DNA of 32,000 nucleotides from Rhizobium helianthi (lineage in GTDB: Bacteria > Pseudomonadota > Alphaproteobacteria > Rhizobiales > Rhizobiaceae). Shown here piece after piece: positions 16,571 through 31,701 of the stretch. The stretch covers positions 88,804-120,803 of the forward strand of contig NZ_JBHUEQ010000003.1 in NCBI RefSeq assembly GCF_042680945.1. Reading direction: 5' to 3'. The notes under the pieces are model-generated. The model made no database searches. It was not told the DNA's origin and saw nothing but the letters and a program-made list of their open reading frames with translations. How positions within the stretch are numbered: the stretch's first letter is position 1; the number at the start of each line of letters is the position of its first letter. The translations under genes and the position numbers were made by a program.

Positions 16571-16594
16571 CCCCACCACCAAAAGGAAACCCAG

Positions 16595-18129: not shown

Positions 18130-18164
18130 TGCCCTGTCCACACACCCCCTTGTACCCCCTGTAG

Positions 18165-18202
18165 GGTGTGAAGGGGTTTCACACCCGCCCCTGACGGGCG
18201 GG
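18165..18202 (+). terminator. two overlapping GC-rich hairpins after the replication gene (possible terminator or origin structure)
   Basis: The first hairpin is GGTGTGAA (18165-18172) / TTCACACC (18178-18185). The second is CCCGCCC (18184-18190) / GGGCGGG (18196-18202). No T-run follows either. Confidence 0.35.
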
Positions 18203-18289
18203 CTTACCCTTCACGCCCATAGCCGACCCGCCGCCAAGAGCGGGCGGCCCGCAACAACCAACCGGAGGAGATTACCAGGATGAAAACAA

Positions 18290-18499
18290 ATGTTTGCAGT
18301 GACACCATATATCGCCGAGCGCCCCATGTGGGTGGAGCAACCTAACGGCAAGGTCAAACAAGAATGGGCGCCCTGCCGTGTCATCGGCATCACCAAGGAC
18401 GATGACGGCGACCCCGCGTTCGTCGTGGAATTCGCTTCAAGCGGCTCGGTCTTCCTGGCCGTTGAAAGTGAAATCAGACGGCGGGGTGATGTTCTGTGA
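18290..18499 (+). CDS. hypothetical small protein (69 aa), uncertain
   Basis: The ORF has plausible codon usage. However, the nearest SD (GGAGGAG, 18264-18270) better serves an out-of-frame ATG at 18279 that opens only a 21-codon ORF. Confidence 0.35.
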   Translation: MFAVTPYIAERPMWVEQPNGKVKQEWAPCRVIGITKDDDGDPAFVVEFASSGSVFLAVESEIRRRGDVL

Positions 18500-18607
18500 T
18501 TGCGGCCCGACAATCTCGCGCGAGCAATCAAGAATTATGTGGCGTGACTGTCCCTTTCTTCATTTCCGCAGGGTGTAACAGTGAAGGTGTCGCGCCGCGA
18601 CCTTGCC

Positions 18608-18630
18608 GCCTGAGTACGGACTGGCACACC
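18608..18630 (+). repeat. 23-bp perfect direct repeat, copy 1 (GCCTGAGTACGGACTGGCACACC)
   Basis: It is identical to 18818-18840, exactly 210 bp downstream. Confidence 0.9.
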
Positions 18631-18817
18631 CCGCGGCGCGGTAGGTGTGGGAAGCAATTGCTTTCAGAAATCCCACCCCCATTGCTACCTGAGTGTACAC
18701 TCAAACCGCGACGCCACGGGCAACATAAAGCGAAGCCAGTTGGCGTGACGCATGCGCCGAATGTCGCCAGAGTGACTAGGGGCAGGAAGCAAACGCTTCC
18801 AGAAATCCCCCATAGCA

Positions 18818-18840
18818 GCCTGAGTACGGACTGGCACACC
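18818..18840 (+). repeat. 23-bp perfect direct repeat, copy 2
   Basis: It is identical to 18608-18630. Confidence 0.9.
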
Positions 18841-19100
18841 TCCCGACTGACTAGGGGTGAGACCACCGGCATCGGTGCGAGTACGTACCCAAACCCTGAA
18901 TTTGCGGGCAGTATTATAGACGCAGCATAGGGTCCGCCACGCGCACTGAAGTCACCAAGGGGTGAGCCGTCTTTTTTCTTTTGCCGCTCCCGGATGTACG
19001 GACGGCAATTAGATCCGCCAGCGCGCTGCGCGCTGCTGGTGTCGATCGAGCCGCAGCGGTGGTTATTCCTTTTCACCGCTGCGGCCACCGTTCCAGATCA

Positions 19101-19137
19101 CCGCCCAGCCTCTTTTGGGGTTGGCGGCTTTATTTTT
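19101..19137 (+). terminator. putative rho-independent terminator immediately upstream of the morphogenesis operon
   Basis: Stem CCGCC (19101-19105) / GGCGG (19123-19127) with additional imperfect pairing, followed by CTTTATTTTT. A 10-bp hairpin precedes it, GCCGCAGCGG (19050-19059) / CCGCTGCGGC (19076-19085). Confidence 0.45.
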
Positions 19138-19174
19138 GCCCAATCGAAAAACTAACCGTTGATAGGAGGCCTCA

Positions 19175-19594
19175 ATGGCCTGGACTTCTCGCGACTTCAG
19201 TGTCGCAGAGGCCGCGCAATGCGTTGGCCTCCACCGCACGCACCTTGACGTCATCATCTCTCGCGCCAACCCGCTCGCCACGCTCTTTTCCGAAAAGCGG
19301 AAAGGGCGGCGCTGGTTTTCGGTGCGCGATATCACAGTTCTCCGGATTGCCTACGAACTGGAACGCGCCGGACGTGCCTGGAATACGGCGATTGCGCAGG
19401 CTTTCGAACACACCGGCACGCAGCCGCCCCCGGACGCGCTTCTGGTGGTTCCTGTCGCCAGTGTGTCGGCAACGTCAGGACGCGTTCTAACGGGCCTCCC
19501 TGACCCGCTGCCGTCGTCGTCTTTCATCACCGTTCCCATAGGGCGCATTGCCGCCGAAATAATGGAGGCAATCGATGCCCTGGCCATTCAGTAA
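19175..19594 (+). CDS. MerR-like HTH protein (possible late-gene regulator)
   Basis: GGAGG lies upstream of ATG 19175. The segments FSVAEAAQCVGLHRTHLDVIIS and WFSVRDITVLRIAYELERAG fit a MerR-type HTH-wing pattern. The 3' end overlaps the portal start by 20 nt. Confidence 0.55.
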   Translation: MAWTSRDFSVAEAAQCVGLHRTHLDVIISRANPLATLFSEKRKGRRWFSVRDITVLRIAYELERAGRAWNTAIAQAFEHTGTQPPPDALLVVPVASVSATSGRVLTGLPDPLPSSSFITVPIGRIAAEIMEAIDALAIQ

Positions 19595-20765
19595 GCCGGC
19601 GCCTGCCGTAGTCATCGAAGAGAAATCCCTTGGCGATCCAACCGCCGAACTGCTCGAATTGTTCGGCGCCATCCCCGCCGGCACGACGATCAGCAACGCG
19701 GAAGCCTTGTCAGTGCCAGCCGTGTCCGCTGCCGTTCGCATCATCTCGGAAGCCGCGGCAAGCCTGGACGTCAAGTTGAAGCGGAAAGTCGGCGGTTCCG
19801 AAACGGACGTTGAAGACCATCCGGCGATGAAGCTTCTAACCGGGCAAGCGAACGGCTGGACGTCCGGATTCGAGATCATCCGCGATTTGGTGGCCGGCGC
19901 GCTCACCAAGGATCAAGGCGGAGTTGCCTACGTGACGAAAGTCAACGGCGAACCGCGCGAAATCATCCAGTATCGCGACGGCGTTTTCACCGTTGATTAC
20001 GACGACGTAACAGGCGAGCCGAAATACAGGATAAGCGGCCAGCCGGTTGCTGCGGGCTACGTGCTGCATGTTCGCGGGCCGTTCACGAAGTGTCCCCTTA
20101 CGATGGCCCGCAGCGCGATTGCCACGGCAAGCGCAATGGAGGCGTACGCCAATGGCCTGTGGTCGAATGGTGCGCGTCCGGGCGGGGTTATCGAAAGCCC
20201 TAAGGCCATTGGTGCAAAGTCGGCCCGCGAAATCTTGGCCGGTTGGAAAGCCGCTTTTGGTGGTTCCGCCAACGCAGGAAAGACCGGTCTGCTTTGGGAC
20301 GGAATGACCTACAAGCAAATGGCGCTGACGTCGGTTGACGGCGAGTTCACGGCCAGCCGCACGTTCCAGATTTTGGAAATTGCCCGCGCCTTCCGTGTGC
20401 CGCCAGGCATGCTTTATGAGCTCTCTCGCAATGTCTGGGGTAATTCCGAGCAACAGGGCAAAGAGTTCATTTCATACACACTAATCCCATGGCTGCGGAT
20501 CCTTGAGGGCGCATTTAACCGCGCGCTGCTCACCGATGCCGAGCGTGTCGAATATCGGTTCATGTTCGATATCGATGACACCAGCCAAGCAGATCTAACC
20601 GCTCGCGCCACTTCGATTTCCACGCTTATCACGGCACGCGTGATGAACCCCAACGAAGCGCGCGAATGGCTTGGCATGCCACCTCGCGACGGTGGCGACG
20701 TTTTCGCAAATCCCGCCATCGACACCGCGCCAGCCAATGACAATCAACCAAAGGAGGCGGCGTGA
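19575..20765 (+). CDS. phage portal protein, HK97 family
   Basis: 396 aa with typical HK97-type portal blocks (..PAVSAAVRIISE.., GGVIE.P, LLWDGMTYKQM, LEIARAFRVPP.ML, PWL..LE). Confidence 0.9.
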   Translation: MPWPFSKPAPAVVIEEKSLGDPTAELLELFGAIPAGTTISNAEALSVPAVSAAVRIISEAAASLDVKLKRKVGGSETDVEDHPAMKLLTGQANGWTSGFEIIRDLVAGALTKDQGGVAYVTKVNGEPREIIQYRDGVFTVDYDDVTGEPKYRISGQPVAAGYVLHVRGPFTKCPLTMARSAIATASAMEAYANGLWSNGARPGGVIESPKAIGAKSAREILAGWKAAFGGSANAGKTGLLWDGMTYKQMALTSVDGEFTASRTFQILEIARAFRVPPGMLYELSRNVWGNSEQQGKEFISYTLIPWLRILEGAFNRALLTDAERVEYRFMFDIDDTSQADLTARATSISTLITARVMNPNEAREWLGMPPRDGGDVFANPAIDTAPANDNQPKEAA

Positions 20766-22294
20766 CCGTCGAATTTCTAGAGTTCAAGGCCGCCTTCACG
20801 GCGGATGACACCGGCCTCGTCGAAGGCAAGGCCTGGGACTTTTCCAGCGCTGACCGCGTTGGCGACATCATTGAGCCTGCAGCCTTCGCCAGTGCCATCG
20901 GCAAGTCTCTCCCCATGCTCTTCGCTCATGACCAGGCGCAGGTCGTCGGCACGTGGGAAAGCGTCGCCGTTGAGGCGGACGGCCTGAAGGTCAAAGGCAG
21001 GCTGCTCGTCGACGACGTCGCACGGGCCAAGGAAGTTCGTGCGCTTCTGCGTGCGAAGTCGGTCACGGGGCTGTCTGTCGGCTTCATGACGAAAAAGGCG
21101 GCGCCTCGCAAAGGTGGCGGCCGCACCATCACCGACCTGGACCTCATGGAAGTGTCCCTCGTCGCAATCCCCGCGCACCCAGGCGCGCTAATCTCTTCCG
21201 TGAAGGAATTCCCCATGACCACCGAAACCAAGACCATTGAAGATCTGGCCGTCGAGCTCAAGGCTGCAAACGACAACATCCTGGCCGTTACCAAGCGGCT
21301 CGAAACCGCCGAAACCGCATTGGCACGACCTAACATTCTCCGCGCTGCGAACGACAATGAACCCACTCCGGAACGCAAGGCCTTCACCGGCTTCCTGCGT
21401 CATGGCGTCGAACGTATGGACGCAACCGAGGTCAAGGCGCTTGTCGTGTCCGACGACACCCGCGGCGGCTATTTGGCGCCTGCAGAGTTTCAGACGGAAA
21501 TCCTGAAGAACCTTGTTGAATACAGCCCGGTTCGCATGGCAGCCCGCGTTGGTTCTACCGCTGCCTCGTCGGTCATCCTGCCGAAGCGCACCGGCACGCC
21601 GACGGCAAGCTGGGTCGGAGAAGTAGAAACCCGCAGCGAGACCAACTCGACATATGGTCAGGTTGAGATTCCCGTTCACGAAATGGCCGCCTATGTCGAC
21701 GTGTCCGTCCAACTTCTTGAGGACGCGGCCATCAACGTCGAAGCCGAAGTCGCCAGTGACCTCGCAGAAGAGTTCGGCCGTCTTGAAGGTGTCGCACTGG
21801 TCAACGGCAACGGCTTCAAAAAGCCCACAGGCATCATGTCCGCGGCCGGCATCACGGAGGTTATCTCTGGTTCCGGCACCGCTATCACTGCGGATAGCCT
21901 CATCAGCCTCATGTATGATCTCCCGGCATTCTATCGCAACAACGGCGCTTGGATGATGAATGGCACAACTCTTGCCGCCATCATGAAACTGAAGGACTCC
22001 ACGAACCAGTATTTGTGGCAACCAAGCTATCAGGCAGGCCAGCCGTCGCTTCTTCTCGGGCGTCCCATTGTAGAAGCAATCGACATGCCGGACATTGCCG
22101 CCGACGCGTTCCCGATCGTTTTTGGCGACTTCAACCGTGCTTACCGAATTTATGACCGTGTCGCGATGTCGATGCTGCGTGATCCATACACGCAGGCCAC
22201 CACCGGGAAGGTTCGGTTCCATGCACGGCGCCGCGTCGGTGCCGACGTCGTGATGGCTGAAGCGCTGCGCAAGCTGAAGGTTTCGGCATCCTAA
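20762..22294 (+). CDS. HK97-family prohead protease (S78) fused in frame to an HK97-family major capsid protein
   Basis: The GTG start overlaps the portal stop (GTGA). Residues 1-150 carry the protease motifs LFAHD (His) and GLSVGF (Ser). The region from residue 152 (MTTETKTIEDL...) has a coiled delta-like segment and then the HK97 MCP pattern. An internal GAAGGA plus ATG at 21215 could also start the capsid protein separately. Confidence 0.88.
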   Translation: MTVEFLEFKAAFTADDTGLVEGKAWDFSSADRVGDIIEPAAFASAIGKSLPMLFAHDQAQVVGTWESVAVEADGLKVKGRLLVDDVARAKEVRALLRAKSVTGLSVGFMTKKAAPRKGGGRTITDLDLMEVSLVAIPAHPGALISSVKEFPMTTETKTIEDLAVELKAANDNILAVTKRLETAETALARPNILRAANDNEPTPERKAFTGFLRHGVERMDATEVKALVVSDDTRGGYLAPAEFQTEILKNLVEYSPVRMAARVGSTAASSVILPKRTGTPTASWVGEVETRSETNSTYGQVEIPVHEMAAYVDVSVQLLEDAAINVEAEVASDLAEEFGRLEGVALVNGNGFKKPTGIMSAAGITEVISGSGTAITADSLISLMYDLPAFYRNNGAWMMNGTTLAAIMKLKDSTNQYLWQPSYQAGQPSLLLGRPIVEAIDMPDIAADAFPIVFGDFNRAYRIYDRVAMSMLRDPYTQATTGKVRFHARRRVGADVVMAEALRKLKVSAS

Positions 22295-22341
22295 TCAGCC
22301 ATCGGGCGGCCTAGCGCTGCCCTTCCTCCGTTTGGAAAGGA

Positions 22342-22734
22342 ATGACCATGCGCGATCTTTCGCATAATCTAGGCGTCGTTCAGGCGCTCGCCCCCCAGGT
22401 GCTTTCGGCTACCGACACCAGCGCGGCCATCGACCTAATCGGTTTCGATTCCGCTGCCGTCGTCATCAGTACGGGCGCCATCGTTTCCTCTGGCAATTTC
22501 ACTGCGAAGCTCCAGGAGTCGGACACGACGACTTCCGGCGATTTCAGCGACGTTGCTGCTGCCGACCTGATTGGCACGCTGCCCACCGCGCTGGCTGCGT
22601 CGTCTGTCTACAAGCAAGGATACGTCGGCAACCGCCGTTACATCCGCCTGGTGACCACGAAGAATTCCGGCACGTCCATTGCGGTCGGTGCCGTGGTCGT
22701 TAAGGGCCATGCTGCTTCGCGGCCTGTAGCATAA
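22342..22734 (+). CDS. hypothetical head-module protein
   Basis: 130-aa ORF directly after the capsid gene with GGAAAGGA upstream. An alternative ATG lies at 22348. No family was recognised. Confidence 0.55.
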   Translation: MTMRDLSHNLGVVQALAPQVLSATDTSAAIDLIGFDSAAVVISTGAIVSSGNFTAKLQESDTTTSGDFSDVAAADLIGTLPTALAASSVYKQGYVGNRRYIRLVTTKNSGTSIAVGAVVVKGHAASRPVA

Positions 22735-22916
22735 CCTATCGGCGGGGGTATCCGAGGTTGCGCCGCGCGACCTAAAGAACGTGCGCGCCCGCCATCGACA
22801 TCATCGCGCGCGTTTACGCGGAAGTGGGGAGTTGTGACCCCTGCGCACGAGGCGGCTGCTTCGCCTCGCTGGCCGTCAGGGTGATCCTGGCGGCCTTGCA
22901 CCTAGAGGATCAATCA

Positions 22917-23270
22917 ATGGTCAACGTCATCTGTCCGTGCGGCTTTGCGGTACCGAAAGGCACGCGCTGCGACTGCAGCCAACGACGCGCCACAGCACGA
23001 CAGAAGGCCGCTGATGCGGCCCGTGGTAGCGCGGCGGCTAGAGGATACACCGGCAAGTGGGCTCAAGAGTCCAAGGCGTGGCTTGCTGCGCTTGGAAGCC
23101 CGCTGTGTGCCTGCGGATGCGGACAGGCTGCGAATATGGTGGACCACATCATAGCGCCGAAAGGTGACAAGCGATTGTTCTGGTCACGCTCCAATTGGCA
23201 GCCTTATCGCGATACATGCAACCGTCGGAAGGCGATCAAGTCTGAAGGTGCGTTTGGGCGAAAGCCGTGA
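22917..23270 (+). CDS. HNH endonuclease (phage packaging-associated type)
   Basis: The start is set at ATG 22917 (MVNVICPCG...), preceded by GAGGA. It has Cys-rich zinc motifs (CPCG, CDC, CACGCG) and the HNH core VDHIIP..G......NWQ..C..CN..K. Confidence 0.8.
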   Translation: MVNVICPCGFAVPKGTRCDCSQRRATARQKAADAARGSAAARGYTGKWAQESKAWLAALGSPLCACGCGQAANMVDHIIAPKGDKRLFWSRSNWQPYRDTCNRRKAIKSEGAFGRKP

Positions 23271-23414
23271 CGCTGGTTTGCATCCAAGGCCAAACAGGCC
23301 CAGGCGGGTCGACCAACGCCACAACCGGGGGGTCGGTCGTCAATTTCCCGCAAACCACCTGGGACCAGCGTGGGCACGTCGCTCTCGATTCACTCTAAAT
23401 GGGAATTTCAACCT

Positions 23415-23705
23415 ATGGCAATCGTCTCTTTGGCTGACGTAAAGGAGCATCTGCGTCTGCTCCATGACGACGACGACGCACTAATTGAGGACCAGATTCC
23501 GGCTGCCGTCGCTCACCTTGAGACGCTGCTGGGATATGTCATCGAAGAAGAATTTACCACCGTTCCCGACGATCTGAAACAGGCCGTTCGCGCGCTGGTT
23601 GCTCACTGGTACGAAAACCGGGAAGCAACTGGCGAAAACCTATTCGAAGCGCCGTTCGGAGTTTGGGAAATCGTGCGCGAACGGCGCAGCTACGCATGGG
23701 AGTAG
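23415..23705 (+). CDS. gp6-like head-tail connector protein
   Basis: The start is set at ATG 23415. MAIVSLADVKEHLRLLHDDDDALIEDQIPAAVAHLE...AVRALVAHWYENRE is the characteristic Phage_gp6 (DNA-packaging/head-tail connector) pattern. Confidence 0.8.
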   Translation: MAIVSLADVKEHLRLLHDDDDALIEDQIPAAVAHLETLLGYVIEEEFTTVPDDLKQAVRALVAHWYENREATGENLFEAPFGVWEIVRERRSYAWE

Positions 23706-23709
23706 GCCG

Positions 23710-24117
23710 ATGACACGAGGACGTAAGCCCGATTTCGTCACGATAGACGGCGCGCTCACAAAGGCGCCAGCCGCTCCCTCGTGGCTGCCTACGCATGCCA
23801 AATCCGAATGGCGACGCATCATGCCGCGCCTCGTGCAGGGAGGCCGGATCGCGAACCATGAGCTCTCTACGGTCGAAGACTATTGCCTCTGCGTGGCCCG
23901 CAAGCGCGAGGCTGAAGCGGTCCTGCAGGCCGAGGGGCTGACCTACCTGTCGCCCACGGGCGAGCTCAAGCGCCGGCCAGAAACAACCATTATCAAAGAA
24001 GCAATCGAGGCCAGCCGCCGGCTCGCCAGCGAGCTCGGACTTACGCCTGCAGCGCGGGCGCGAAATAAGGGAGGCGCCGCAATCGATGACGAAGACGACG
24101 CCTTATCTTCCATCTAG
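23710..24117 (+). CDS. terS: phage terminase small subunit, P27 family
   Basis: The start is set at ATG 23710, with GGGAG 7 nt upstream. MTRGRKP......AP.WL...A..EW.R..P.L...G......D...L..YC is the typical P27-family TerS pattern. Confidence 0.85.
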   Translation: MTRGRKPDFVTIDGALTKAPAAPSWLPTHAKSEWRRIMPRLVQGGRIANHELSTVEDYCLCVARKREAEAVLQAEGLTYLSPTGELKRRPETTIIKEAIEASRRLASELGLTPAARARNKGGAAIDDEDDALSSI

Positions 24118-25708
24118 TCACCCGTCCTGGCTCTTTGACGATTCACCAATTCCAGATCCGCACGGCAAAGGGCAGCGCGCCGTTGATTTTCTTCGCGCGC
24201 TGAAGCACCCCAAGAGCACCGCGCCTGGTCGAGCATTTCAGCTAGATCCGTGGGTCGAAAGGCTTGTGCGAAAGGTCTATGGCGACACAAAGCCGGACGG
24301 CACCCGCCGCATCAAGACGGTTTTCGCCCTCATTCCTCGCGGCAATCGCAAGACGACACTTGGCGCTGCTTTGTGCCTGCTGGCGCTAGGGCCGGAGCGC
24401 GTTCCGGGGTCGCAGGTGGTTAGCGCAGCCGTTGACCGCGATCAGGCGCGTATCGCGCTTGAAGAGATGAAGGGCGTGATCGCGGCTCATCCAAGGCTCG
24501 AAGCTGCGTTCCATGTGCAGGACACCAAGAACCGGATAACGCACCGAAAGTCTTCGGCATTTTACCGCGCCATGTCAGCGGATGCCGCAACCGCTCACGG
24601 ACGCACGCCAGTTTTCGCACTGGTGGACGAATTGCACGCCTGGAAAAAACGCGACCTTTGGGACGCTATCAAGACAGGCCTTGTGAAGACGCCGGGCAGC
24701 TTGCTGGTAGTTACGACCACGGCAGGCATAGGCCACGAGAACATCGCGTATGAGACGTACAAATATGCGAAGGCAGTAGCGACCGGTCAGATTGAAGACG
24801 ATGCCTTCTTGCCCATTATATTCGAGGCGGATCCGAAGGAAGACTGGCGCGACGAGGCCGTGTGGCATCGCGTGAATCCTGGCCTATCCTGTAACCCGCC
24901 CTACCCGGACATTGTCGGCTTGCGCCAGATGGTGCGGGAAGCCGAACACAGGCCAGCCGATCGCGAAATGATCCGTCAACTGCACTTGAACGTGTGGCTG
25001 GACGGCGCTGCTAACCCGGAGTGGTCCCTCGACGTTTGGGACGAGAACGCAGGCGAGCTTGATCTGTCCGAATTGGAGGGGCGGCCCGCTTGGGTGGGTG
25101 TCGACTTGGCAAAGAGAATTGACCTCTGCGCAGTCGCCATTGCCATCCCCATGGAGGACGGACGGACGGCGTTGCACGTTCAATCGTTCTGTCCGGCTGG
25201 CACAATTCGCAAACGCACTGACGGCGTTCCTTATCCGCTATGGCGCGACCAAGGCTACCTCACGGAATGCCCTGGAGACGCCATCGACCTCGAATTGGTG
25301 GAAAACTACATCCGCGGCCTCTGTGAGCGGTTCCAAGTCGAAGAAATCGCTTTTGACCGGTGGCACGCTCAAGACGTGATGAAGTCGCTTGAGGCGGATG
25401 GACTGCCGGTGGCGGAGTTTCCGCAGAACATCGCCACTTTCGCCCGCCCTGTTATTGACTTCGAAGCGGCCATGTTTGACCGAAAGCTTGTTCATGGCGG
25501 AAATCCGCTGCTGCGTTGGGCTGTAGGCAATGTCGTGCTTTACACCGACGGCAGCGGAAACCGGCGCCCGCTGAAAGAGAAATCAATCGACAAGATCGAC
25601 CCCGCAGTTGCCGCCATCATCGCCAACGGACGCGCCGCGCAAGGCGTTTCAGGCCGCTCAAGCTACGACGATGCGGATTTGTCCGATTTGTCGTTGTTTG
25701 CGGTTTAA
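24086..25708 (+). CDS. terL: phage terminase large subunit
   Basis: 540 aa. It has a Walker A-like PRGNRKTT, a Walker B VFALVDELHAW, and a C-terminal nuclease domain. The start overlaps terS by 32 nt. Confidence 0.92.
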   Translation: MTKTTPYLPSSHPSWLFDDSPIPDPHGKGQRAVDFLRALKHPKSTAPGRAFQLDPWVERLVRKVYGDTKPDGTRRIKTVFALIPRGNRKTTLGAALCLLALGPERVPGSQVVSAAVDRDQARIALEEMKGVIAAHPRLEAAFHVQDTKNRITHRKSSAFYRAMSADAATAHGRTPVFALVDELHAWKKRDLWDAIKTGLVKTPGSLLVVTTTAGIGHENIAYETYKYAKAVATGQIEDDAFLPIIFEADPKEDWRDEAVWHRVNPGLSCNPPYPDIVGLRQMVREAEHRPADREMIRQLHLNVWLDGAANPEWSLDVWDENAGELDLSELEGRPAWVGVDLAKRIDLCAVAIAIPMEDGRTALHVQSFCPAGTIRKRTDGVPYPLWRDQGYLTECPGDAIDLELVENYIRGLCERFQVEEIAFDRWHAQDVMKSLEADGLPVAEFPQNIATFARPVIDFEAAMFDRKLVHGGNPLLRWAVGNVVLYTDGSGNRRPLKEKSIDKIDPAVAAIIANGRAAQGVSGRSSYDDADLSDLSLFAV

Positions 25709-25714
25709 GGGAAT

Positions 25715-25740
25715 GCCACGCCCATAGCTCAGGGCGTGGC
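25715..25740. terminator. hairpin between convergent terL and lipoprotein genes
   Basis: A 9-bp stem GCCACGCCC (25715-25723) / GGGCGTGGC (25732-25740). There is no T-run, and the right arm overlaps the lipoprotein 3' end. Confidence 0.35.
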
Positions 25741-26127
25741 AGGCGGAGCACGCTTGAAAGCTATGCCCGTTGCGATAACAGCCGACCAGCAATTCTTAAC
25801 TATTGCGCCCGGGTCCGGCACGACTTGCACGGAATGCACGGTGTCAAAGCCTTTTGCCGCTGCGTCCTGCTTCATCAATGCGGTAGCGTTTTCTGGGCTT
25901 GGGTCTGGATCCCAAAGCTTGTTCTTGCATGAATGGCCGGACACACGAGCGGTAGCGGCGCCGAGTGGCGGGCCAGTGTCAACGATAGCAACGGCCACTG
26001 TATCGCGCACGTCCTTCTTGGGCTCAACCCAAGTGCGCGTCAGACTTACATCAGAGTTTTGCGCAGTCGTGCCGCATCCGGCAAGGGCAAGCGCAGCCAC
26101 GAATGGCACCAGCAACTTCGACTTCAT
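25729..26127 (-). CDS. lipoprotein on the opposite strand inside the structural region (moron), RcsF-like pattern
   Basis: It has a lipobox (MKSKLLVPFVAALALAGC). The segment VSGHSCKNK..DPDPS...A..LMK..AA.KG...V........PG....C....I..G.AF aligns by eye with the E. coli RcsF C-terminal domain (VSGDSCQAS..DSPPS...). Confidence 0.65.
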   Translation of the reverse strand: MKSKLLVPFVAALALAGCGTTAQNSDVSLTRTWVEPKKDVRDTVAVAIVDTGPPLGAATARVSGHSCKNKLWDPDPSPENATALMKQDAAAKGFDTVHSVQVVPDPGAIVKNCWSAVIATGIAFKRAPPATP

Positions 26128-26277
26128 CGATCATCCCCCACACGCAACTCAACTTCCGATGGCGTGCGGGCGAAGTCAATAGGCCGAGACCACAGCCCGC
26201 CACTGAGCGGGCTTTTTCACACCAACCACACACGAGACCAACCAAACCGCCGGTCGCACCGGCTGGAGGGAAGAACC

Positions 26278-26490
26278 ATGTCAAATTCCACTGCATATGT
26301 GCTCAGCGTGTTTGCTGGAAACCTCACTGATGCGCTCGTCAAATCGGGTGCGCTAACGCCCGCGGCAGCTCGCGAAGTTTTTGCCGAAGTTGTCAACCGC
26401 CGAGATGCTGTGGTGGATGAAGAAGCGGCGAATCTAACTAAGTATTTTTCTTGCGGCTCAACTGAGTTTTGGCCGGAGGAGGCGCGCTAA
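26278..26490 (+). CDS. hypothetical small protein translationally coupled to the tailspike gene
   Basis: GGAGGG lies upstream of ATG 26278. The protein is 70 aa, and its stop overlaps the next start (TAATG). Confidence 0.5.
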
Positions 26491-29162
26491 TGGCACTGCT
26501 TTCCTACCAGTCACAGGATATCTTTGCGCCTGCCAATGAAAACGGACAGCTGCGCTCGCCGTCTTTGCAGGAAGTGCAGGTTTGGGGCACGGAAATTGAG
26601 GCGCTTGTTGACTCCATTGCGACCTCAGCGGCAATCTTTGACACGCGCGCAAACCTTTACTCGTCGCTTGCCTATGCGGCCAACACGTTGGCGTGGGTGG
26701 TGAATGACGCTACGGCGGCATACAACGGCATCTATCGCAAGTCGGGCGCTTCCGGCTCTGGTTCATGGACGCGCGTTGCTGATCTGCCTTACAGCTTGAT
26801 TGTGGCGAGCAATTCTGGCGCCGGTACGGCAAACGCCATCGTAGCCACCACGGCTATTCCAGTCTCGGAATCCGCTCTTGTGCTGCTGAATGTTGCGGCA
26901 AACAACACGGCAAGTCCGGTGACAGTAGCGTTCAACGGTGGCTCCGCCCTGACCGTGAAGGCCAACAGCGGCAACGACATCGTACCAGGCGGCTTGGTCT
27001 CCGGCATGTTGTTGCTTGGTCGTGTGTCTGGTTCTACATTCAGGCTTGTTAGCGATCAGGCTAGCTCTGCGATCCAAGCCGCCGCCGAAGCGGCTGCAAA
27101 TCAAGCCGCGGCGGAGGCTGACCGTGCAGAAGCTGCGGCGACGGTTGCGTCTGGCGCGATGACCACCGTGCTCGATCCACAGTTCGCCACGCTTGCGGCT
27201 GCCTCTGCGTTCTCTCCTGCTGTGGCCCCGGACTACATACGCACGGCTGGCTATTCCGCTGCTGGAGATGGTGGCGGCGCTCTTTACAAGAAGGTTGCAT
27301 CCGGGCCAAGCCACGCCGGAAAGTTCTCCATCACACTAAGCGGTGGCGGGACAGCGTGGTATGAGTTGGCTAACGGTCAACCGATCTATGCGGAGATGTT
27401 CGGTGCTGTGGGTCACCAGACGGATGCTGCGGCTCTTGCAGATGACGGGACGGTTACCACGCAGGCGATCATCAATGGGCGAGCCTTCCTTCGTGGTAGG
27501 TCAACCGCCCTGAGTACGGATGGTATCAGCGGCAAAGCGATCACCGCCTATGCCTCCGGTGTTCTCAATCTCGGAAGAGGAATTTTCTGCGTTAAGCCAG
27601 ATATGCTCGCTACGGATCAAGATATTGGCTTCATCATCCGAGGACAGGGCAATTCTGGTCGCACCAACTATATGCGTGGGCTGACCACCCTGCTTATTCG
27701 GGGAGCTTCTTCTGGATATGGTCTACGCTGGTATGGCAACGGCGGGCGAAGCGGCGGACTTGAAGATTTAGACCTCTGCTACGAAAGCGCATCGTTCACA
27801 GGTGACATGCTTGACATCATGGGTGGCGTTGGCACGTCCCCGCGGCGCGTAAGTTTTGACAGTTTCGGCAAGACGGGCGGGACAGCGCTATTTACGGCGC
27901 GCTCCAACGTGTCAATCGCGTACGAAGAGTTCTTCCACCCGAAAGATTGCACCTTCAGTGGTGCCAATATCAGCGTCTACTCCCCTTCTACTAACGGGGA
28001 GAAAGTCGTATCTAGACTGACTGGTTCCATCAGCGGAAATACCTTGACTGTGACAGCCCTTAACGAGGGCAATCTTGACGTAGGGCAAAGGCTATACGGC
28101 ACAGGTGTTGCTGAGGGAACCGCGATCACCGAACTTGGCACTGGATCTGGAGGGGTTGGCACGTATACCGTGAACATCAGCCAGTCGGTGTCTTCCCGTG
28201 CGATGACGACTGATATCTCTTTCGGCGGAAGTTGCACGGAGATCGACGCAACCAACGTTTTTTACGATTGCGGCGCCAAGTACGTAGAGCATCGAGCCGA
28301 TAAGGCTCGCTATAACTTCCAGTTCAGTGGGGTAATCAATCCGATACGCAAGGCAAGTACGACAGCAATTGATCTGAGAAACGTAAACACTGTAAGCTTA
28401 GTCGGAATTATGATGCACGGTTCTGTCGGGTTCGGTGCGTCGGATCGCTGGATTTATCTGGAAAATTGCACAGGGAGCCTGTGTGATAATCAGTTTGGTC
28501 CTGGGGCGCCGGAAGCTGCTTATGTTCTGAACTGTCAAATGGAAATCAGTAGTAACTTCCTGCACAATGAAGCCCTAGGATTTGTTTTGCTTGGGGGTGT
28601 AATTAACGGCAAGTCAAACCGCTTCAGTGGATCGGGCATTGGTTGGCGTGTTGCACCTGCCGCGAAGTTAACGGGTCAGATTGGTCCCGACGTGTTCGAC
28701 GCAACGATGACGACCTCCTATCTCATTGACCCGCCGAGCAGTCTGGCGCAAATGCGTGTTAACTACGATAAAGACCTCGATCGCAGCACAGGAAAGTTCA
28801 GTATCGCTTCAGGTTCACGCAACGTGCAAATACTTGGCAGTGGCGAGCGTGAGTACACTGATACTACGGGAAATTACTCAACGTTTGATACTGGCAAAAC
28901 GCTGATTATGAACGCGTCTGGGGCCATGAATTATACTGTCCCCCCACCATTTCACAACTGTGAACTTATGATCTACAAGCCGGTTGGTTTCAGTCTCACA
29001 CTCAACACCAGTTCCGCAAACAGGTTCAGTATCGGGTCGGGCGGAACCAAAACGCAGTTAACGAGTGCCGCTACTGATATCGGTGCATTCGCTAAGCTCA
29101 GGGGATTAGGAACTTCTGACTGGATTGTTGAGAGCCTTGTGGGGACTTGGACATCCGCCTGA
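26490..29162 (+). CDS. tail fiber / tailspike-like protein with a pectate-lyase-type beta-helix (putative depolymerase or receptor-binding protein)
   Basis: 890 aa from ATG 26490. After an N-terminal anchor region comes an Ala-rich coiled coil ([24 protein letters not shown]). This is followed by the motif [20 protein letters not shown], typical of Pectate_lyase_3/tailspike domains, and then long beta-helix-like repeats. The 3' third is visibly lower in GC. Confidence 0.78.
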
Positions 29163-29222
29163 TTGGAGTCGTCGGGCGGCGAGGCTTCTTACAGCCAGAG
29201 CCGCCCAAACCGCCTAGATGAG

Positions 29223-29723
29223 TTAGCCAGACCGTCTACGGAGCCGAGCCTTCAAGCCGTTGCCTGGTGGCGCAAGCACGATGATGCTGATGTCAACAAA
29301 ACCGTTATCTCCGACCCAGACTGCATAGAGTTCGCCCGCCACGGGTAAACCTTTATCGATCAGGTCGCGATTTATCTCTCTGGCTAGATCCCTTTCGAGG
29401 TAGCCGATTTGCCATTCACGTTGGCCAGCGAATCCCATCACAGCGATGGCGTTTGCGTCATATCTATTACTGGGCTCGGGAATGAGCCTCACGCCGTATA
29501 TCAATCCGCCCCTTTCCGCTGCTCTGACCGCAGCTATGAAAGCGGAAACGTCCCTTTTTCGGTGCTGGACACCAGCAACTTTCACAACGGTCGTTGTCTG
29601 CACCCAATTCCCATCGGGCATGTGACGATGCTGCCCAAAACGCCCCGAAGCTTGCGCACCTAAAGGCGCCGTTTCGTTCGCATTCGGTGAGCTATATCCG
29701 AACAGCCAACCCCACAGGCTCAT
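29223..29723 (-). CDS. HIRAN domain-containing protein
   Basis: The start is set at ATG 29723 (MSLWGWLFG). The core VKVAGVQHRKRDVSAFI....GVRLIPEPSNRYDANAIAV......IGYLERDLA fits the HIRAN pattern (VGxxxy...L.REP.N.yD.nAI.V....G.iGYl). Confidence 0.7.
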   Translation of the reverse strand: MSLWGWLFGYSSPNANETAPLGAQASGRFGQHRHMPDGNWVQTTTVVKVAGVQHRKRDVSAFIAAVRAAERGGLIYGVRLIPEPSNRYDANAIAVMGFAGQREWQIGYLERDLAREINRDLIDKGLPVAGELYAVWVGDNGFVDISIIVLAPPGNGLKARLRRRSG

Positions 29724-29832
29724 AACGTTCCCCCAGCGCCATGTACGTAGGGTTGCGTATAGTGTGGGGATAGTCAACCGTACTCTGCCCCGAAAGCGAC
29801 CGGCTAGGCGGCGAGGCTTCTATGCGCAGACA

Positions 29833-30429
29833 TCAGGAACGGGTGCGCCACGTCCGTTCGCGGTAGATTTCCGTGCGGCCTTCGTCGGTGATGTGCCAAT
29901 GCTGCCTTCCGTCCGCATCCTTGCCGCCAGCGCGCACGCAGCCGACCTTGGCTATGTATTCCATCGTTTTCACGCCGGCATCGGGTATCACGTCGGTCGT
30001 AGTGCAATCGGGGTGGTCGATCATAAAGGCGAGGACGCGCAGCTGCACCGCATTCAGCCCGTGCCGCGGCTTGAGTTTGTCGCGTTCCGCCTTGCGTGCT
30101 CGCCAGCTATCCACGGTGCCGCGCTTGGGATTTGGGTTGGGCGTGCGTGGTGGGGAAAAACTGCCGCTGCCGAACTTGCCGTGTTCACGTTCCCATCGGT
30201 CAAATTCGTCCTCTTGATTGTGGTTCACGGCGAGCCCGCCGATGGCGTTAAGTTTGTCTTCAATTGCCGCCTTGTCCCATCTACGCGTGCCGGGAATAGG
30301 CGGCGGCATGATGTGGGTGCGCACCCACATTGAGAACGTGGATGGGGCAATACCGCAAAGCGCTGCGGCTTGTGGGCGGGACAGGAGGCGGGGCTCGATC
30401 TTCATTGGCGGGTTCTTCGGCGCTTCCAT
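29833..30429 (-). CDS. DNA-binding protein: N-terminal AlpA/Xis-like HTH plus a C-terminal winged-helix-like domain
   Basis: The segment LLSRPQAAALCGIAPSTFSMWVRTHIMPPPIPGTRRWDKAAIE is excisionase/AlpA-like. The C-terminal LNAVQLRVLAFMIDHPDCTTTDV...HWHITDEG looks MarR/wHTH-like. Confidence 0.55.
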   Translation of the reverse strand: MEAPKNPPMKIEPRLLSRPQAAALCGIAPSTFSMWVRTHIMPPPIPGTRRWDKAAIEDKLNAIGGLAVNHNQEDEFDRWEREHGKFGSGSFSPPRTPNPNPKRGTVDSWRARKAERDKLKPRHGLNAVQLRVLAFMIDHPDCTTTDVIPDAGVKTMEYIAKVGCVRAGGKDADGRQHWHITDEGRTEIYRERTWRTRS

Positions 30430-30651
30430 TCGCCTAGCCTTTCTTCTCCGTCAGGCGCGGCAGCCGCGAAGCCAAAAAATTTGGTGTATCTTTTCGTCGG
30501 ATTAGTTTCAGCGGCACGGCTCACCTTCCACAATTGGCGCCGCCGAGAGGCGGAGAGTTACCCATTCGTTGGTGGGCCGGGCTGGGGGAGCCGCGTGGCG
30601 TTGGTGAAGCGCAGTTGAAAGCTAACGCGCTGAAATGCCCCGAGTCAATGT

Positions 30652-30888
30652 TCAATCGGAAGGATTGCGAAGGCGAACGCCCAAGCCGCCCGTAGTCGTT
30701 TCGCCATCAGCTAGAAAGATAACATGTGTTTCTAGCACCTTGCGCAGTGCTTCCAGAGTCGATTGCTTCGCGTCCGCTCCGTTCTCGATTCGTGTGATTG
30801 TGTTCGCAGTTACGCCAGCAAGCCGGGCCAACTCGCGAACCCCTAGACCCACCGCGGCCCGCGCCATTTTTAATTGAACAGCCTTCAT
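30652..30888 (-). CDS. XRE-family HTH transcriptional regulator (cI/Cro-like; candidate master repressor)
   Basis: The start is set at ATG 30888. The segment LKMARAAVGLGVRELARLAGVTANTITRIENG is a canonical HTH_XRE. Confidence 0.8.
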   Translation of the reverse strand: MKAVQLKMARAAVGLGVRELARLAGVTANTITRIENGADAKQSTLEALRKVLETHVIFLADGETTTGGLGVRLRNPSD

Positions 30889-30891
30889 TTT

Positions 30892-30958
30892 GGTACCTTG
30901 TACAAATATGTATTGACACGGAACCAAAAATAGCTATCGTGTCGGTACAGTGTACAAA
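30892..30958. promoter_or_regulatory. divergent promoter/operator region with two 15-bp direct repeats
   Basis: The repeats GGTACCTTGTACAAA (30892-30906) and GGTACAGTGTACAAA (30944-30958) match at 13 of 15 positions and start 52 bp apart. They flank TTGACA (30913-30918), a 16-nt spacer, and TATCGT (30935-30940) on the plus strand. Confidence 0.45.
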
Positions 30959-30992
30959 CACACTGATACGAAATCAACAGCGAGGCGCAAGG

Positions 30993-31391
30993 ATGCGAAC
31001 CGACCCGATTGGACAACCCTCCGACAGACTGCTCCTGCCAAGACGGCTTGTCCCAAGACGTGGGGCGCAGCTCGCCAATATTCAAAGCGCGCCTCGCGCC
31101 GATTTTCACCATCGCGTTACTGACGACGCGATGGCCCCGACTTACCGCCTGGACGATATTCTGTGCTGCGTCGCCGTTGACGCATTTTGCTGTGAGGGTG
31201 TCTACGTGATGGCACGCTCAGAAGTATTTCGATGCCGACGCGAGGGCGGTGTCATCGTCATGACACGCGACAACCCGGATTTTTTTAGCCGACGATGCGA
31301 CGTAAACTCTTTTGTCGACCTTGCGCCCGCGCTCGTGGTCGCGGACGTTCGCTTGTTACGTCCCGGTTGCTATCGCGACCTACAAAACTAG
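30993..31391 (+). CDS. S24 (LexA/cI C-terminal)-like protein with degenerate catalytic residues
   Basis: The start is set at ATG 30993. VTDDAMAPTYRLDDIL aligns with the V.GDSM.P....GD motif, with Ser replaced by Ala. No Lys is evident at the expected position (FRCRRE). The protein has no HTH domain. Confidence 0.45.
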   Translation: MRTDPIGQPSDRLLLPRRLVPRRGAQLANIQSAPRADFHHRVTDDAMAPTYRLDDILCCVAVDAFCCEGVYVMARSEVFRCRREGGVIVMTRDNPDFFSRRCDVNSFVDLAPALVVADVRLLRPGCYRDLQN

Positions 31392-31574
31392 AGCAAATTA
31401 CAGATTTCATGCCGCCTCGGCACCACCCTTGGGGCAATCCGGCCCATAGGGCGGCATGAGCGAACCAGCGCGGCCCACCAACTTCCGCAAGGAAGCGCAG
31501 CAGGTCAGCCCAAACCGTCGGTCTCAGGATCGGCGGTTTGCGGCGTTTTAAAGCGGGGAGAAAAAGTGGGGAAG

Positions 31575-31615
31575 AAGCACCTGTCCTCGGATTATCTCAA
31601 CGAAAACAGGTGCTT
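31575..31615 (-). terminator. 10-bp inverted repeat just inside attR; element-supplied hairpin downstream of tRNA-Asn
   Basis: AAGCACCTGT (31575-31584) / ACAGGTGCTT (31606-31615) with a 21-nt loop. On the minus strand it follows the tRNA 3' end by about 11 nt, and a TTTTT run comes 9 nt after the stem. Confidence 0.4.
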
Positions 31616-31622
31616 ACTTCTC

Positions 31623-31640
31623 AAACTGGCTCCCCGGGCC
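31623..31640. repeat. attR core: 18-bp direct repeat AAACTGGCTCCCCGGGCC
   Basis: It is identical to 14574-14591 and covers the last 14 nt of tRNA-Asn plus 4 nt downstream. Confidence 0.85.
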
Positions 31641-31701
31641 GGATTCGAACCGGCGACCTATCGATTAACAGTCGAGTGCTCTACCGCTGAGCTACCAGGG
31701 A
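31627..31701 (-). tRNA. tRNA-Asn (anticodon GTT), with encoded CCA
   Basis: The reverse complement is TCCCTGGTAGCTCAGCGGTAGAGCACTCGACTGTTAATCGATAGGTCGCCGGTTCGAATCCGGCCCGGGGAGCCA. It folds by hand into a 75-nt cloverleaf: a 7-bp acceptor stem with one G-U pair, D arm GCTC/GAGC, anticodon loop CTGTTAA, and T arm GCCGG/CCGGC with a TTCGAAT loop. Confidence 0.9.

Follow-up and report, generated by a model that had tools for sequence, protein, structure and literature searches.

A complete tail-fibre gene, encoding an 890-residue protein, lies within a tail-less genomic island of Rhizobium helianthi, so the island may choose its target cells and not inherit the host range of the tail donor. Judged by its gene content, the island is a tail-less, capsid-forming phage satellite of the cf-PICI type, and the fibre-carrying island is a variant of a known satellite kind not previously described. 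[quoted passage not shown] On balance, we think that this island probably equips hijacked 16-3-type tails with a receptor-binding fibre of its own, whose swappable C-terminus sets the target.

Organization of the island

The window (the whole 32,000-nucleotide stretch analysed, from contig NZ_JBHUEQ010000003.1) contains the island at positions 14574–31643 (17,070 bp), integrated in a tRNA-Asn gene, with housekeeping genes occupying the left flank (1–14573). The attL site (14574–14594), a copy of the 3' end of the tRNA located 26 nt upstream of the integrase ORF, is identical at 20 of 21 positions to attR (31623–31643), the repeat inside the tRNA 3' end, and the exact core measures 18 nt. The integration target itself, tRNA-Asn (GTT; 31627–31701, reverse strand), was identified by ARAGORN and scores 69 bits in Rfam, where it is the sole match.

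Unless stated otherwise, the genes of the island are on the forward strand. Next to attL are a P4-type tyrosine integrase (14620–15915; Arm-DNA-bind_3, Phage_int_M, and Phage_integrase domains), an AlpA-family regulator (16029–16253; PF05930, E = 5.7e-10), and a RepA-like AAA_25 replication ATPase (16830–18089; PF13481, E = 7e-34) that is conserved in sister islands and in which no primase domain was detected. At the stop codon of this gene, 4.7 copies of a ~10-nt unit (18080–18130) form iterons, a candidate origin. A 139-aa protein with no family match (19175–19594) is always encoded upstream of the portal gene in the island family and is 42–71% identical in L004, L005, L006, L008, L012, L021, and L110. 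It is followed by the portal (19575–20765; PF04860, E = 1.5e-76), a prohead protease (S78) fused to an HK97-type major capsid protein (20762–22294; PF04586 and PF05065), and a 130-aa head-module protein (22342–22734; phrog_5707), also conserved in sister islands. The best phage-database match of the portal, only 32% identical, is a 16.5-kb cf-PICI-like 'induced prophage', and no deposited phage has a closely similar head module.

The packaging module includes an HNH endonuclease (22824–23270; phrog_2323, E = 2.3e-15). The adjoining gp6-like head-tail connector (23370–23705; PF05135, E = 1.7e-16; likely true start ATG 23415) is the only head-tail joining protein recognised in the island, and it has no match among deposited phages. 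The small terminase TerS, of the P27 family (23599–24117; PF05119, E = 1.1e-22), probably has its true start near 23710, because homologues align from residue ~37; it is followed by the large terminase TerL (24086–25708; TerL_ATPase and TerL_nuclease domains). Beyond TerL, a lipoprotein gene on the reverse strand (25729–26127; weakly RcsF-like, with the lipobox LAGC) accompanies the fibre gene. Two further reverse-strand genes lie past the fibre, encoding a HIRAN-domain cargo protein (29223–29777; PF08797, E = 1.8e-7) and a 198-aa HTH/excisionase-like regulator (29833–30429; phrog_66 and phrog_597).

Profile searches of the ORFs inside the island returned the fibre as the sole match to tail families; they revealed no genes for a tail tube, tape measure, or baseplate and none for a holin or endolysin. 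An earlier note on this DNA had described a satellite-like, tail-less element, and the att-bounded island, with capsid and terminase genes and without tail genes, bears this out. An ordinary phage was ruled out, as the att-bounded 17 kb offers neither space for nor matches to tail genes and the flank is housekeeping.

Like cf-PICIs, the island has a terminal integrase gene, an AlpA regulator, and a replication gene, here accompanied by iterons as a candidate origin; it encodes HK97-type head proteins (portal, protease, and capsid), a gp6-like head-tail connector, and the packaging proteins HNH, TerS, and TerL; it spans about 17 kb and carries accessory cargo next to its packaging genes; and it lacks tube, tape-measure, baseplate, and lysis genes. 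It differs in adding a full-length tail fibre and a 70-aa partner, in having only one recognised connector, and in placing the portal and capsid genes before TerS and TerL. Furthermore, its host is alphaproteobacterial, whereas reported cf-PICIs come from gamma-Proteobacteria and Bacillota, and its portal shares only about 32% identity with the portal of a cf-PICI-like element from enterobacteria. The 890-aa fibre sets the island apart from the usual definition of cf-PICIs, which excludes tail and lysis genes. Tail-associated and holin/lysis profiles are forbidden components in SatelliteFinder, and current satellite finders would miss fibre-carrying elements by design, because tail genes count as disqualifying.

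Architecture of the tail fibre

The cargo slot downstream of TerL is a two-gene cassette that encodes a 70-aa protein and the 890-aa tail fibre, both on the forward strand. The 70-aa ORF (26278–26490; ATG at 26278, TAA at 26488–26490) is preceded by GGAGGG and is translationally coupled to the fibre gene (ACFSE1_01170; 26490–29162; start ATG 26490) through a TAATG overlap, which is real, as had been proposed. The long ORF is extensible to TTG 26469 (897 aa); the public annotation P0001 (890 aa) and the sister island L106 use the ATG. Neither protein was matched in Pfam (at E up to 10), NCBIfam, or PADLOC, and a promoter/terminator consensus scan around the cassette performed no better than on shuffled sequence. 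Only two homologues of the 70-aa ORF were found among 5.8 billion proteins, both encoded directly upstream of, and overlapping, a fibre gene, and its dN/dS against L106 is 0.13. By these comparisons, it is a conserved fibre partner under purifying selection.

The 890-aa protein belongs to PHROG 38233 'tail fiber' (E = 5.3e-92, res. 1–227) and, on this homology, is a real tail fibre. Its anchor, or tail-attachment domain (res. 1–190; 26490–27059, forward strand, as are all parts of the fibre), is β-rich and modelled with a pLDDT of 89.9. The N-terminus (res. 1–189) is 54–64% identical to the fibre N-termini of the Rhizobium/Sinorhizobium phages 16-3 (a Sinorhizobium phage), phiLM21, phi3LM21, and NV1.1.1, with res. 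2–189 being 56% identical to p023 of 16-3. The attachment domain of ~190 aa proposed earlier agrees with this fibre-anchor homology, although in many relatives the N-terminal homology extends to about residue 310. An Ala-rich helix, presumably a trimeric coiled coil, follows (res. 191–226; 27060–27167); both structure models, which are monomers, place a helix at residues 191–223 with 50% Ala, in keeping with the Ala-rich segment that had been noticed after the N-terminal region.

The remainder of the fibre models as a tailspike-like right-handed β-helix. It starts with res. 227–508 (27168–28013), including an 18-residue motif at 252–269, is interrupted by an inserted ~65-aa β domain (res. 509–576; 28014–28217; phrog_21413, E = 4e-18), and ends with the distal β-helix and a C-terminal β domain (res. 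577–890; 28218–29162), the low-GC part of the gene. The inserted domain is also found in PF11134 phage proteins and in large proteins with up to 24 matched stretches per protein. With the AlphaFold model of the fibre (pLDDT 83.7) as query, Foldseek returned 6c72, 6w4q, 8iq9, and 4ru4 at a probability of 1.00, and the β-helix also matches viral EPS depolymerases; a PDB sequence search with the fibre gave only noise (E > 0.5). Family membership and the predicted structural match to tailspike depolymerases together uphold the earlier identification of an 890-aa β-helix tailspike. The Pectate_lyase_3 hallmark claimed for its start fared less evenly: the motif is present and is followed by β-strands to the C-terminus, but Pfam calls no family, with no match of the fibre to Pectate_lyase_3/Pect-lyase_RHGA_epim (PF12708) at E ≤ 10. 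Relatives that share fibre residues 230–310 or the motif segment carry PF12708.

The tailspike depolymerases Fri1 gp49 (Acinetobacter), CBA120 TSP2, K2-2 TSP (Klebsiella), and LKA1 gp49 (Pseudomonas) likewise combine an N-terminal particle-binding module with a right-handed parallel β-helix of similar length. However, they are only 9–13% identical to the island fibre, on which Pfam β-helix models score nothing and in which the 65-aa domain is inserted. No catalytic residues were identified in the island fibre. The C-terminal 600 residues are closest (about 31% identical) to fibres of Pseudomonas phages such as Ab31, JBD44, and YA3. Among full-length relatives, P0002 and P0003 are the nearest; their contigs are too short to reveal gene context.

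The same β-helix fold is common to EPS depolymerases, GH110 enzymes, and alginate epimerases, and the fibre gene adjoins the lipoprotein gene and, in L012, an O-antigen acetylase gene, both typical surface-modifying morons. The protein could thus be an enzyme acting outside any tail, as a free depolymerase or by lysogenic conversion, on the exopolysaccharide or capsule of its producer or of neighbours; its release during lysis might help particles to get free, or it might strip receptors. We regard this as very unlikely, given that the fibre N-terminus has no signal peptide and that a conserved 190-residue virion-attachment module would be purposeless in a free enzyme. An autotransporter or secreted host enzyme was ruled out, since a signal peptide is missing and the N-terminus is a phage-fibre anchor.

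GC content declines along the gene, with successive 300-nt windows at 0.57, 0.58, 0.62, 0.56, 0.56, 0.53, 0.47, 0.52, and 0.51. The fibre segment at res. 576–890 has a GC of 0.50 and a GC3 of 0.53; GC3 of the island core genes is 0.65–0.71. In 600-nt windows, the low-GC part lies about 2.3–2.6 sd under the window mean. The fall toward the C-terminus described earlier is therefore real, but its floor is about 50% and not in the mid-40s, as GC values of 0.42–0.48 are reached by single 60-nt lines only.

The anchor domain in phages

[quoted passage not shown] The only significant PDB fold match of the anchor is the Pa193 baseplate/tail-fibre complex (9b45). These positions and alignments identify the first ~190 fibre residues as the attachment module of fibres that follow h in 16-3/phiLM21-type siphophages. 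Exchange with real phages is seen in island L004, whose anchor shares 87% identity with the anchor of the true phage L098. Fibres of PHROG 38233, which include 16-3 p023 and those of phiLM21, phi3LM21, AP-16-3, and RHph, share this N-terminal domain followed by a helix, have a modular C-terminus, and, in many members, have the same β-helix start. They differ from the island fibre in gene context and receptor end: the phage gene ends a complete tail module after h, whereas the island gene is located after TerL, the lipoprotein, and the 70-aa ORF, and the C-terminal 600 residues of the island fibre are unlike those of rhizobiophage fibres. Homologues of the lipoprotein, 52–55% identical, are encoded in the retrieved loci of true phages as well: in L122 at 0.2–1.5 kb beyond the fibre, and in L061/L121 at ~10 kb downstream.

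Head spikes decorate the capsid of the Rhodobacter gene transfer agent. Tail-less capsids are released by cf-PICIs (10.1101/2025.02.11.637232), and a fibre decorating the island's capsid or connector would give such particles an adsorption device. This role is extremely unlikely in view of the position of the anchor after the tail-tip gene and of its single solved-structure match, a baseplate/tail-fibre complex. The anchor also occurs in small elements without a recognised portal or major capsid gene, whose ORFs are only partly annotated and one of which carries a prohead-protease-like ORF. As for what the N-terminal anchor binds, a question raised in the earlier note, the evidence favours the tail tip and not the neck or capsid.

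Sister islands and exchange of the receptor end

Sister island L106 (TerL 94% identical) keeps the lipoprotein (93% identical), the 70-aa ORF, and the fibre N-terminus, and its gp6 is 100% identical over 96 aa. The DNA of L106 and the window is 82% identical over 23415–26940 and unrelated beyond this point, which falls inside the fibre gene. Because similarity ends within the fibre, the alignment shows that the receptor end was swapped between the two islands, as expected for the exchanged receptor-recognition module that had been postulated. Against L106, the dN/dS of the anchor is 0.18, and the genes neighbouring the cassette have a dS of 0.5–0.7; at this level of comparison, both cassette genes are shown to be under purifying selection.

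A fibre-type gene lies right after TerL in five of the eight assessable elements (TerL at least 85% identical). The islands of the window, L004, L012, and L106 combine the same anchor with four different C-termini, and L013 has Mtd_N-type fibres after TerL. The fibre is absent from L019 and from the distant islands L005, L006, L015, L021, and L023. In some sister islands the post-TerL slot holds a tape-measure-like gene or an unknown gene instead, which indicates that the fibre is not essential to the island family. L010 shares the head module (TerL 86%); on its contig of 56.8 kb, TerL is followed by tail-like genes. The TerL scan of genome contigs returned three loci, none of them from R. helianthi itself, and a metagenome scan added L110 and L111, near-identical copies of one further close island.

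Fibre genes recombine promiscuously, and this, together with the relatives that have no fibre and the arrangement in L010, would suit a passenger or remnant with no role in the life cycle, either a decayed prophage or a satellite that gained its fibre by illegitimate recombination. Such an origin is distinctly unlikely. The fibre ORF is intact and its model is of high confidence, and the synteny TerL–(lipoprotein)–70-aa ORF–fibre recurs in the sister island, where dN/dS is 0.13–0.18 and the neighbouring genes have a dS of 0.5–0.7. Furthermore, islands of ~17 kb with the same gene set occupy different tRNAs in different species, and the order portal–major capsid protein…TerS–TerL–fibre is no simple deletion of a canonical prophage.

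Enterobacterial cf-PICIs have immune cargo in the slot that matches the position of the island's fibre, and a defence or interference role is therefore possible. Specifically, the matching anchor, common to the island fibre and real phages, could displace the fibre of the helper or of a competitor and leave the phage mis-targeted or non-infective, serving defence and not island spread. [quoted passage not shown] Tai resembles the fibre in being satellite-borne cargo that acts on another element's tail, but Tai proteins are unrelated to fibres, and the island cargo is a complete structural tail component. A decoy would need neither a complete, well-folded 600-residue β-helix nor swaps to other complete receptor modules, as seen in the sister islands, and PADLOC gave no match, all of which makes this role unlikely. 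Interference and re-targeting are mutually compatible.

Proposed role of the fibre

In the re-targeting that we favour, a helper siphophage whose tail tip is of the 16-3/phiLM21 type would replicate in the same cell, island DNA would be packaged into the island's own small heads, and these heads would be joined to helper tails via the gp6-type connector. The island would supply its fibre, whose N-terminal ~190 residues would dock at the p023-type fibre site of the helper, beside the tail-tip protein h, and the β-helix would bind, and probably cleave, an island-specified polysaccharide of the cell surface (EPS, CPS, or LPS). The island would thus determine, at least in part, which hosts its particles recognise, and a C-terminal swap would change the target. 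The helper, the incorporation of the fibre into tails, its enzymatic activity, and its effect on the host range of the island are features that we infer. Infection by 16-3-type phages may additionally require their central protein h, in which case a side fibre alone would have limited power to re-target.

Published cf-PICIs are described as taking their tails, and hence their host range, wholly from phages, and as broadening that range only by joining to the tails of different phages through altered adaptor/connector proteins. Our literature search found no description of a satellite-encoded tail fibre for PICIs or cf-PICIs, and, among the titles retrieved on satellite receptor-binding proteins and retargeting, none concerned a satellite-encoded fibre. 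If the proposed role is true, host range would be determined at two levels, the second of them under satellite control, and detection rules that forbid tail genes would hide a class of elements. It would also bring capsid-forming satellites into Alphaproteobacteria of soil and plants, in which satellites have received virtually no study. The idea is directly testable, since the receptor end of the fibre is all that separates natural sister islands, and a small self-packaging element with a swappable fibre could serve naturally as a template for the targeted delivery of DNA to rhizobia.

Tail-tip parts in other small elements

It is conceivable, though somewhat doubtful, that rhizobial satellites more widely bring their own fibre: the capsid-forming family and a second family of ~17-kb elements would carry tail-tip parts in the cargo slot and fit them onto hijacked siphophage tails, with host range set by the satellite and evolving by receptor-module swap independently of the helper. 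By tail-tip parts we mean either a fibre whose anchor matches the helper, in some cases accompanied by a 70-aa partner, or a tape-measure-like protein. Exchange with real phages is also seen in L043, an element of the second kind: its genome contains two complete prophages, and their fibres share 92% identity with the L043 fibre. Compared with L045/L046, the fibre anchor of L043 is 92–98% identical, well above the family background of 50–60%. The type-B element L105 carries RepB_primase and AAA_25. Homologues of the 198-aa regulator are present in L019, L043, L055, L067, L105, and L106, near the right end of small elements of both kinds.

Proposed role and gene content of the island

The att-bounded island (window 14574–31643) is, on balance, probably a satellite of the cf-PICI type (capsid-forming and tail-less) that supplies its own fibre to helper tails. 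Upon helper induction, it would fill its own heads, which would be joined to helper tails, and would contribute the 890-aa fibre, docked at the tail tip via a shared N-terminal anchor (residues 1–190); the fibre would recognise, and probably cleave, surface polysaccharide. The borders and gene content, the family and fold of the fibre, its modular exchange, and the selection are observed, whereas the helper, the tail incorporation, the enzyme activity, and any effect on host range are inferred.

Two copies of a 21-nt att repeat, AAACTGGCTCCCCGGGCC(T/G)GA, at 14574–14594 and 31623–31643, share an exact 18-nt core and enclose 17,070 bp. The right copy forms the 3′ end of tRNA-Asn(GTT) (31627–31701, minus strand), and a P4-type integrase ORF begins 26 nt downstream of the left copy. 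The integrase is followed by AlpA, two small ORFs, an AAA_25 RepA-like ATPase, and a 139-aa protein, and then by a head and packaging module consisting of portal, S78 protease–HK97 capsid fusion, phrog_5707 protein, HNH, gp6-like connector, TerS, and TerL. To the right of TerL lie a lipoprotein gene (minus strand), the 70-aa and 890-aa ORFs, and, on the minus strand, genes for a HIRAN-domain protein and an HTH/excisionase-like protein. None of the remaining ORFs matched a tail or lysis family in family searches within the att-bounded island. The left flank (1–14573) is housekeeping DNA encoding LysR, Crp, and AsnC regulators, a 5′-nucleotidase, alanine dehydrogenase, and a PLP enzyme. No close relative of the head module was found among deposited phages: all 1,752 portal matches fall below 60% identity and the gp6 connector has zero matches, and the module is not borrowed from any of them. 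The best-ranked portal match (32%) comes from the 16.5-kb 'induced prophage' vB_KppS-Ant, the map of which resembles that of a cf-PICI.

The stop codon of the ATPase gene falls within 4.7 copies of a 10-nt iteron (18080–18130). These iterons belong to a 1.1-kb stretch between the rep and 139-aa genes (18080–19170), mostly lacking convincing ORFs and with no Rfam match, that also holds a 48-nt direct repeat (18605–18652 and 18815–18862, 79% identical). The HIRAN-domain protein (29223–29777) has weak PADLOC PDC-M03B matches and adjoins the 198-aa HTH/excisionase-like protein (29833–30429).

The fibre cassette

The 70-aa ORF runs from ATG 26278, with GGAGGG seven bases upstream, to TAA 26488–26490, and its stop overlaps the ATG of the 890-aa ORF (26490 to 29162), just as the earlier note had read the cassette. 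A mechanical ORF listing places the long-ORF start at TTG 26469; the ATG is preferred, being the start annotated publicly for the identical protein (Rhizobium helianthi ACFSE1_01170, 890 aa) and used in the sister island L106. GC content is 0.57–0.62 over the first 900 nt of the long ORF and 0.47–0.52 over the last 900 nt; residues 576–890 have a GC of 0.50 and a GC3 of 0.53, against a GC3 of 0.65–0.71 in the island's integrase, rep, portal, capsid, and TerL genes. The drop in GC claimed in the earlier note is real, at ~2.3–2.6 sd under the window mean, though it goes down to ~50% and not to the mid-40s. Equally low values occur elsewhere in the window only at 7300–7900, the window's lowest-GC segment (0.45–0.48), which lies outside the island between 5′-nucleotidase-like and AsnC-type regulator genes.

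A search of 5.8 billion proteins returned only two homologues of the 70-aa ORF, both immediately upstream of, and overlapping, a same-anchor fibre. One belongs to L106 and the other to a distinct small element of Affinirhizobium pseudoryzae, ordered RepB_primase/AAA_25, S78 protease, TMP_3 protein, 227-aa protein, 70-aa ORF, 786-aa fibre, HTH protein, integrase. The ORF is a genuine gene linked to the fibre; an assembly factor or an adaptor are candidate roles for its product.

A GC-rich hairpin (GCCCGC-cactga-GCGGGC) followed by TTTTT lies on the plus strand at 26196–26222, between the lipoprotein gene start and the 70-aa ORF, and is not among the entries of a promoter/terminator consensus scan. 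The lipoprotein gene (25729–26127, minus strand), between TerL and the cassette, encodes an LAGC lipobox and has a weak RcsF-like match. Homologues (52–55%) occur in fetched true-phage loci, 0.2–1.5 kb past the fibre in L122 and ~10 kb downstream in L061 and L121. Other phages encode receptor-masking, superinfection-exclusion lipoproteins beside receptor-binding genes, a position that the island gene resembles.

Mosaic architecture and fold of the fibre

Pfam, NCBIfam, and PDB sequence searches with the fibre gave no match, and PHROG 38233 'tail fiber protein' matches it (E 5e-92), chiefly over residues 1–227. Compared with deposited phages, the protein is a mosaic: residues 1–189 are 54–64% identical to fibre N-termini of the Sinorhizobium/Rhizobium phages phi3LM21, 16-3 (p023), NV1.1.1, phiLM21, and the RHph phages, and residues 273–888 resemble, at ~31% identity, those of the Pseudomonas phages Ab31, YA3, and JBD44. 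Among 842 relatives of the N-terminal part in a large protein database, C-terminal domains vary (PF12708, PF13229, PF05048, SGNH, Peptidase_S74). The predicted 18-residue beta-helix motif is present at residues 252–269, and in many of these relatives conservation continues past it to about residue 310. Modules are likewise shuffled in two full-length relatives: P0002 joins the fibre's C-terminal module (59% over residues 264–889) to a different N-terminus, and P0003 has residues 22–744, but not the tip, in common.

An AlphaFold model (pLDDT 83.7) contains a beta-rich domain (residues 1–190), a helix (191–223), and a long beta-solenoid with a small inserted beta domain (~509–576). Foldseek groups the solenoid with the tailspike depolymerases Fri1 gp49 (6c72), CBA120 TSP2, K2-2 TSP, and LKA1 gp49, bearing out the tailspike beta-helix proposed earlier; further matches are to GH110 and AlgE4 beta-helices, viral EPS depolymerases, and tail fibres. 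A free depolymerase or conversion enzyme is quite improbable, as the fibre has no signal peptide and a free enzyme would have no use for the anchor. Modelled alone (pLDDT 89.9), the anchor has a single significant solved-structure match, a chain of the Pseudomonas phage Pa193 baseplate/tail-fibre complex (9b45, E 4.7e-4).

The inserted domain (~65 aa, window 28014–28217) corresponds to phrog_21413 and is covered by no Pfam family. A single protein can contain as many as 24 matched stretches of this unit, the largest such proteins reaching 3,744 aa, and hundreds of PF11134 (phage stabilisation) proteins have it as well.

The anchor in phage tails

In Sinorhizobium phage 16-3, p023 is the final gene of the tail module, immediately after the host-range gene h. 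An anchor profile search of IMG/VR, whose contig ends are predictions, recovered 279 loci. Among the best 80, which were fetched, a homologue of 16-3 h or a related 715-aa tail-tip protein (of L003) directly precedes the fibre gene in 76, with p021, p020, p018, and tape measure farther upstream. The anchor thus serves as the attachment module of a side or terminal fibre on 16-3/phiLM21-type siphophage tails. Its genomic location argues for docking at the tail tip, as in the helper-tail account, and against the neck or capsid decoration entertained in the earlier note; a head or neck fibre, contradicted by the places where the anchor occurs, is very improbable.

Modular exchange and selection after TerL

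L106 offers the most informative comparison: it and the window share gp6 (100% identity), TerL (94%), lipoprotein (93%), and the 70-aa ORF (87%), including its one-base overlap with the fibre. Their DNA is 82% identical over 23415–26940, ending inside the fibre; at the protein level, identity is ~80% for residues 1–130 and 52% for 1–318 as a whole, with no match further on. dN/dS between the two is lowest in TerL (0.06) and the lipoprotein (0.065), followed by the 70-aa ORF (0.13) and the anchor (0.18). Together these comparisons indicate that selection has kept the cassette in its island setting even as the receptor end was replaced, which agrees with the composition shift and upholds the earlier suggestion of an exchanged receptor module. 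A functionless passenger or prophage remnant is unlikely, being contradicted by the conserved synteny and these ratios.

TerL searches gathered relatives with TerL at least 85% identical, eight of which, the window included, could be assessed downstream of TerL. The window and L106 carry the 70-aa ORF and a fibre (890 aa, and 754 aa with PF12708, respectively). L004, a Rhizobium leguminosarum CC278f island ending at tRNA-Met, carries a 614-aa fibre with the same anchor, and L012 a 727-aa same-anchor fibre with an endosialidase/S74-type end, followed by an O-antigen acetylase. L013 has two fibres with Mtd_N anchors, L010 and L110 have a tape-measure-family protein and a 231–268-aa protein, and L019 has a 402-aa protein of no known family. 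No fibre was seen in more distant islands (TerL ~49%). The position after TerL is thus a cargo slot in which parts of the tail tip recur. An interference or decoy role through the same tail docking has a small chance of being correct: the slot is known for immune cargo, but complete, swappable receptor modules would be left unexplained. Supply of the fibre to helper tails is the reading we retain.

The tape-measure-family protein in the fibre's place belongs to phrog_8892/19914 (E down to 1e-156; L110 11684–15557, L111, L010 11635–15513), and L110 has an additional 357-aa protein after it and its 231–268-aa neighbour. In vB_KppS-Ant (2036–4333), an enterobacterial element, a gene annotated as tape measure directly follows TerL. 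Such a gene may be common in tail-less capsid-forming islands. L010 itself could be a true phage with the same head module. The L012 acetylase (14080–16041, minus strand; Acyl_transf_3 and SGNH; phrog_6705, E 6e-120) comes right after the fibre, and in 16-3 an acetyltransferase (immX region) likewise directly follows p023, which looks like a pairing of fibre and surface-modifying enzyme. In L013, a ~1.77-kb insertion (11014–12780) splits TerL, whose residues 5–342 and 341–540 match on its two sides.

Comparison with cf-PICIs

The island has the gene set described for cf-PICIs (10.1101/2022.09.08.507074; PMC10085698). By function and layout it is a cf-PICI, but it departs from the strict definition on one point: a cf-PICI should lack tail-associated genes, a rule that SatelliteFinder enforces through forbidden tail profiles (PMC10085698). 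The cf-PICI papers derive host range from whichever tail is hijacked, with adaptation via adaptor/connector genes, and make no mention of an island-encoded fibre (including 10.1101/2022.09.08.507074); cf-PICIs have been placed in gamma-Proteobacteria and in Bacillota, and soil systems are described as unexplored. A full-text literature search of incomplete coverage revealed no published fibre of a PICI or cf-PICI. We therefore file the fibre-carrying island as a variant of the cf-PICI kind, described here from sequence and structure models.

Small elements sharing the anchor

The L004 island anchor shares 87% identity with the anchor of contig L098, which has a full h-type tail module, and 90% with that of L118, one of a second kind of small integrated element. 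In L043, another such element (IMG genome 2928991799), the fibre is 92% identical over its full length, and 96–98% in the anchor, to the fibres of L045 and L046, both of them complete 16-3-like prophages in that genome; the family background is 50–75%. Such likeness would be expected of small elements that match the tails of their co-resident phages.

Elements of this second kind (L043, L055, L067, L105, L118; for example L105 1–16392 and L055 195–16854; UViG contigs of 17–28 kb) carry a replication initiator or RepB_primase/AAA_25, a Neck1-like protein, and sometimes an S78 protease. No h-type tail-tip, tail-tube, portal, or major capsid gene was recognised in these five. A 465–650-aa tape-measure-family protein lies upstream of the same-anchor fibre, directly or with a 227–240-aa ORF between, and an HTH protein and integrase follow the fibre. 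Homologues of the island's 198-aa HTH/excisionase-like protein lie near the right end in both kinds of small element.
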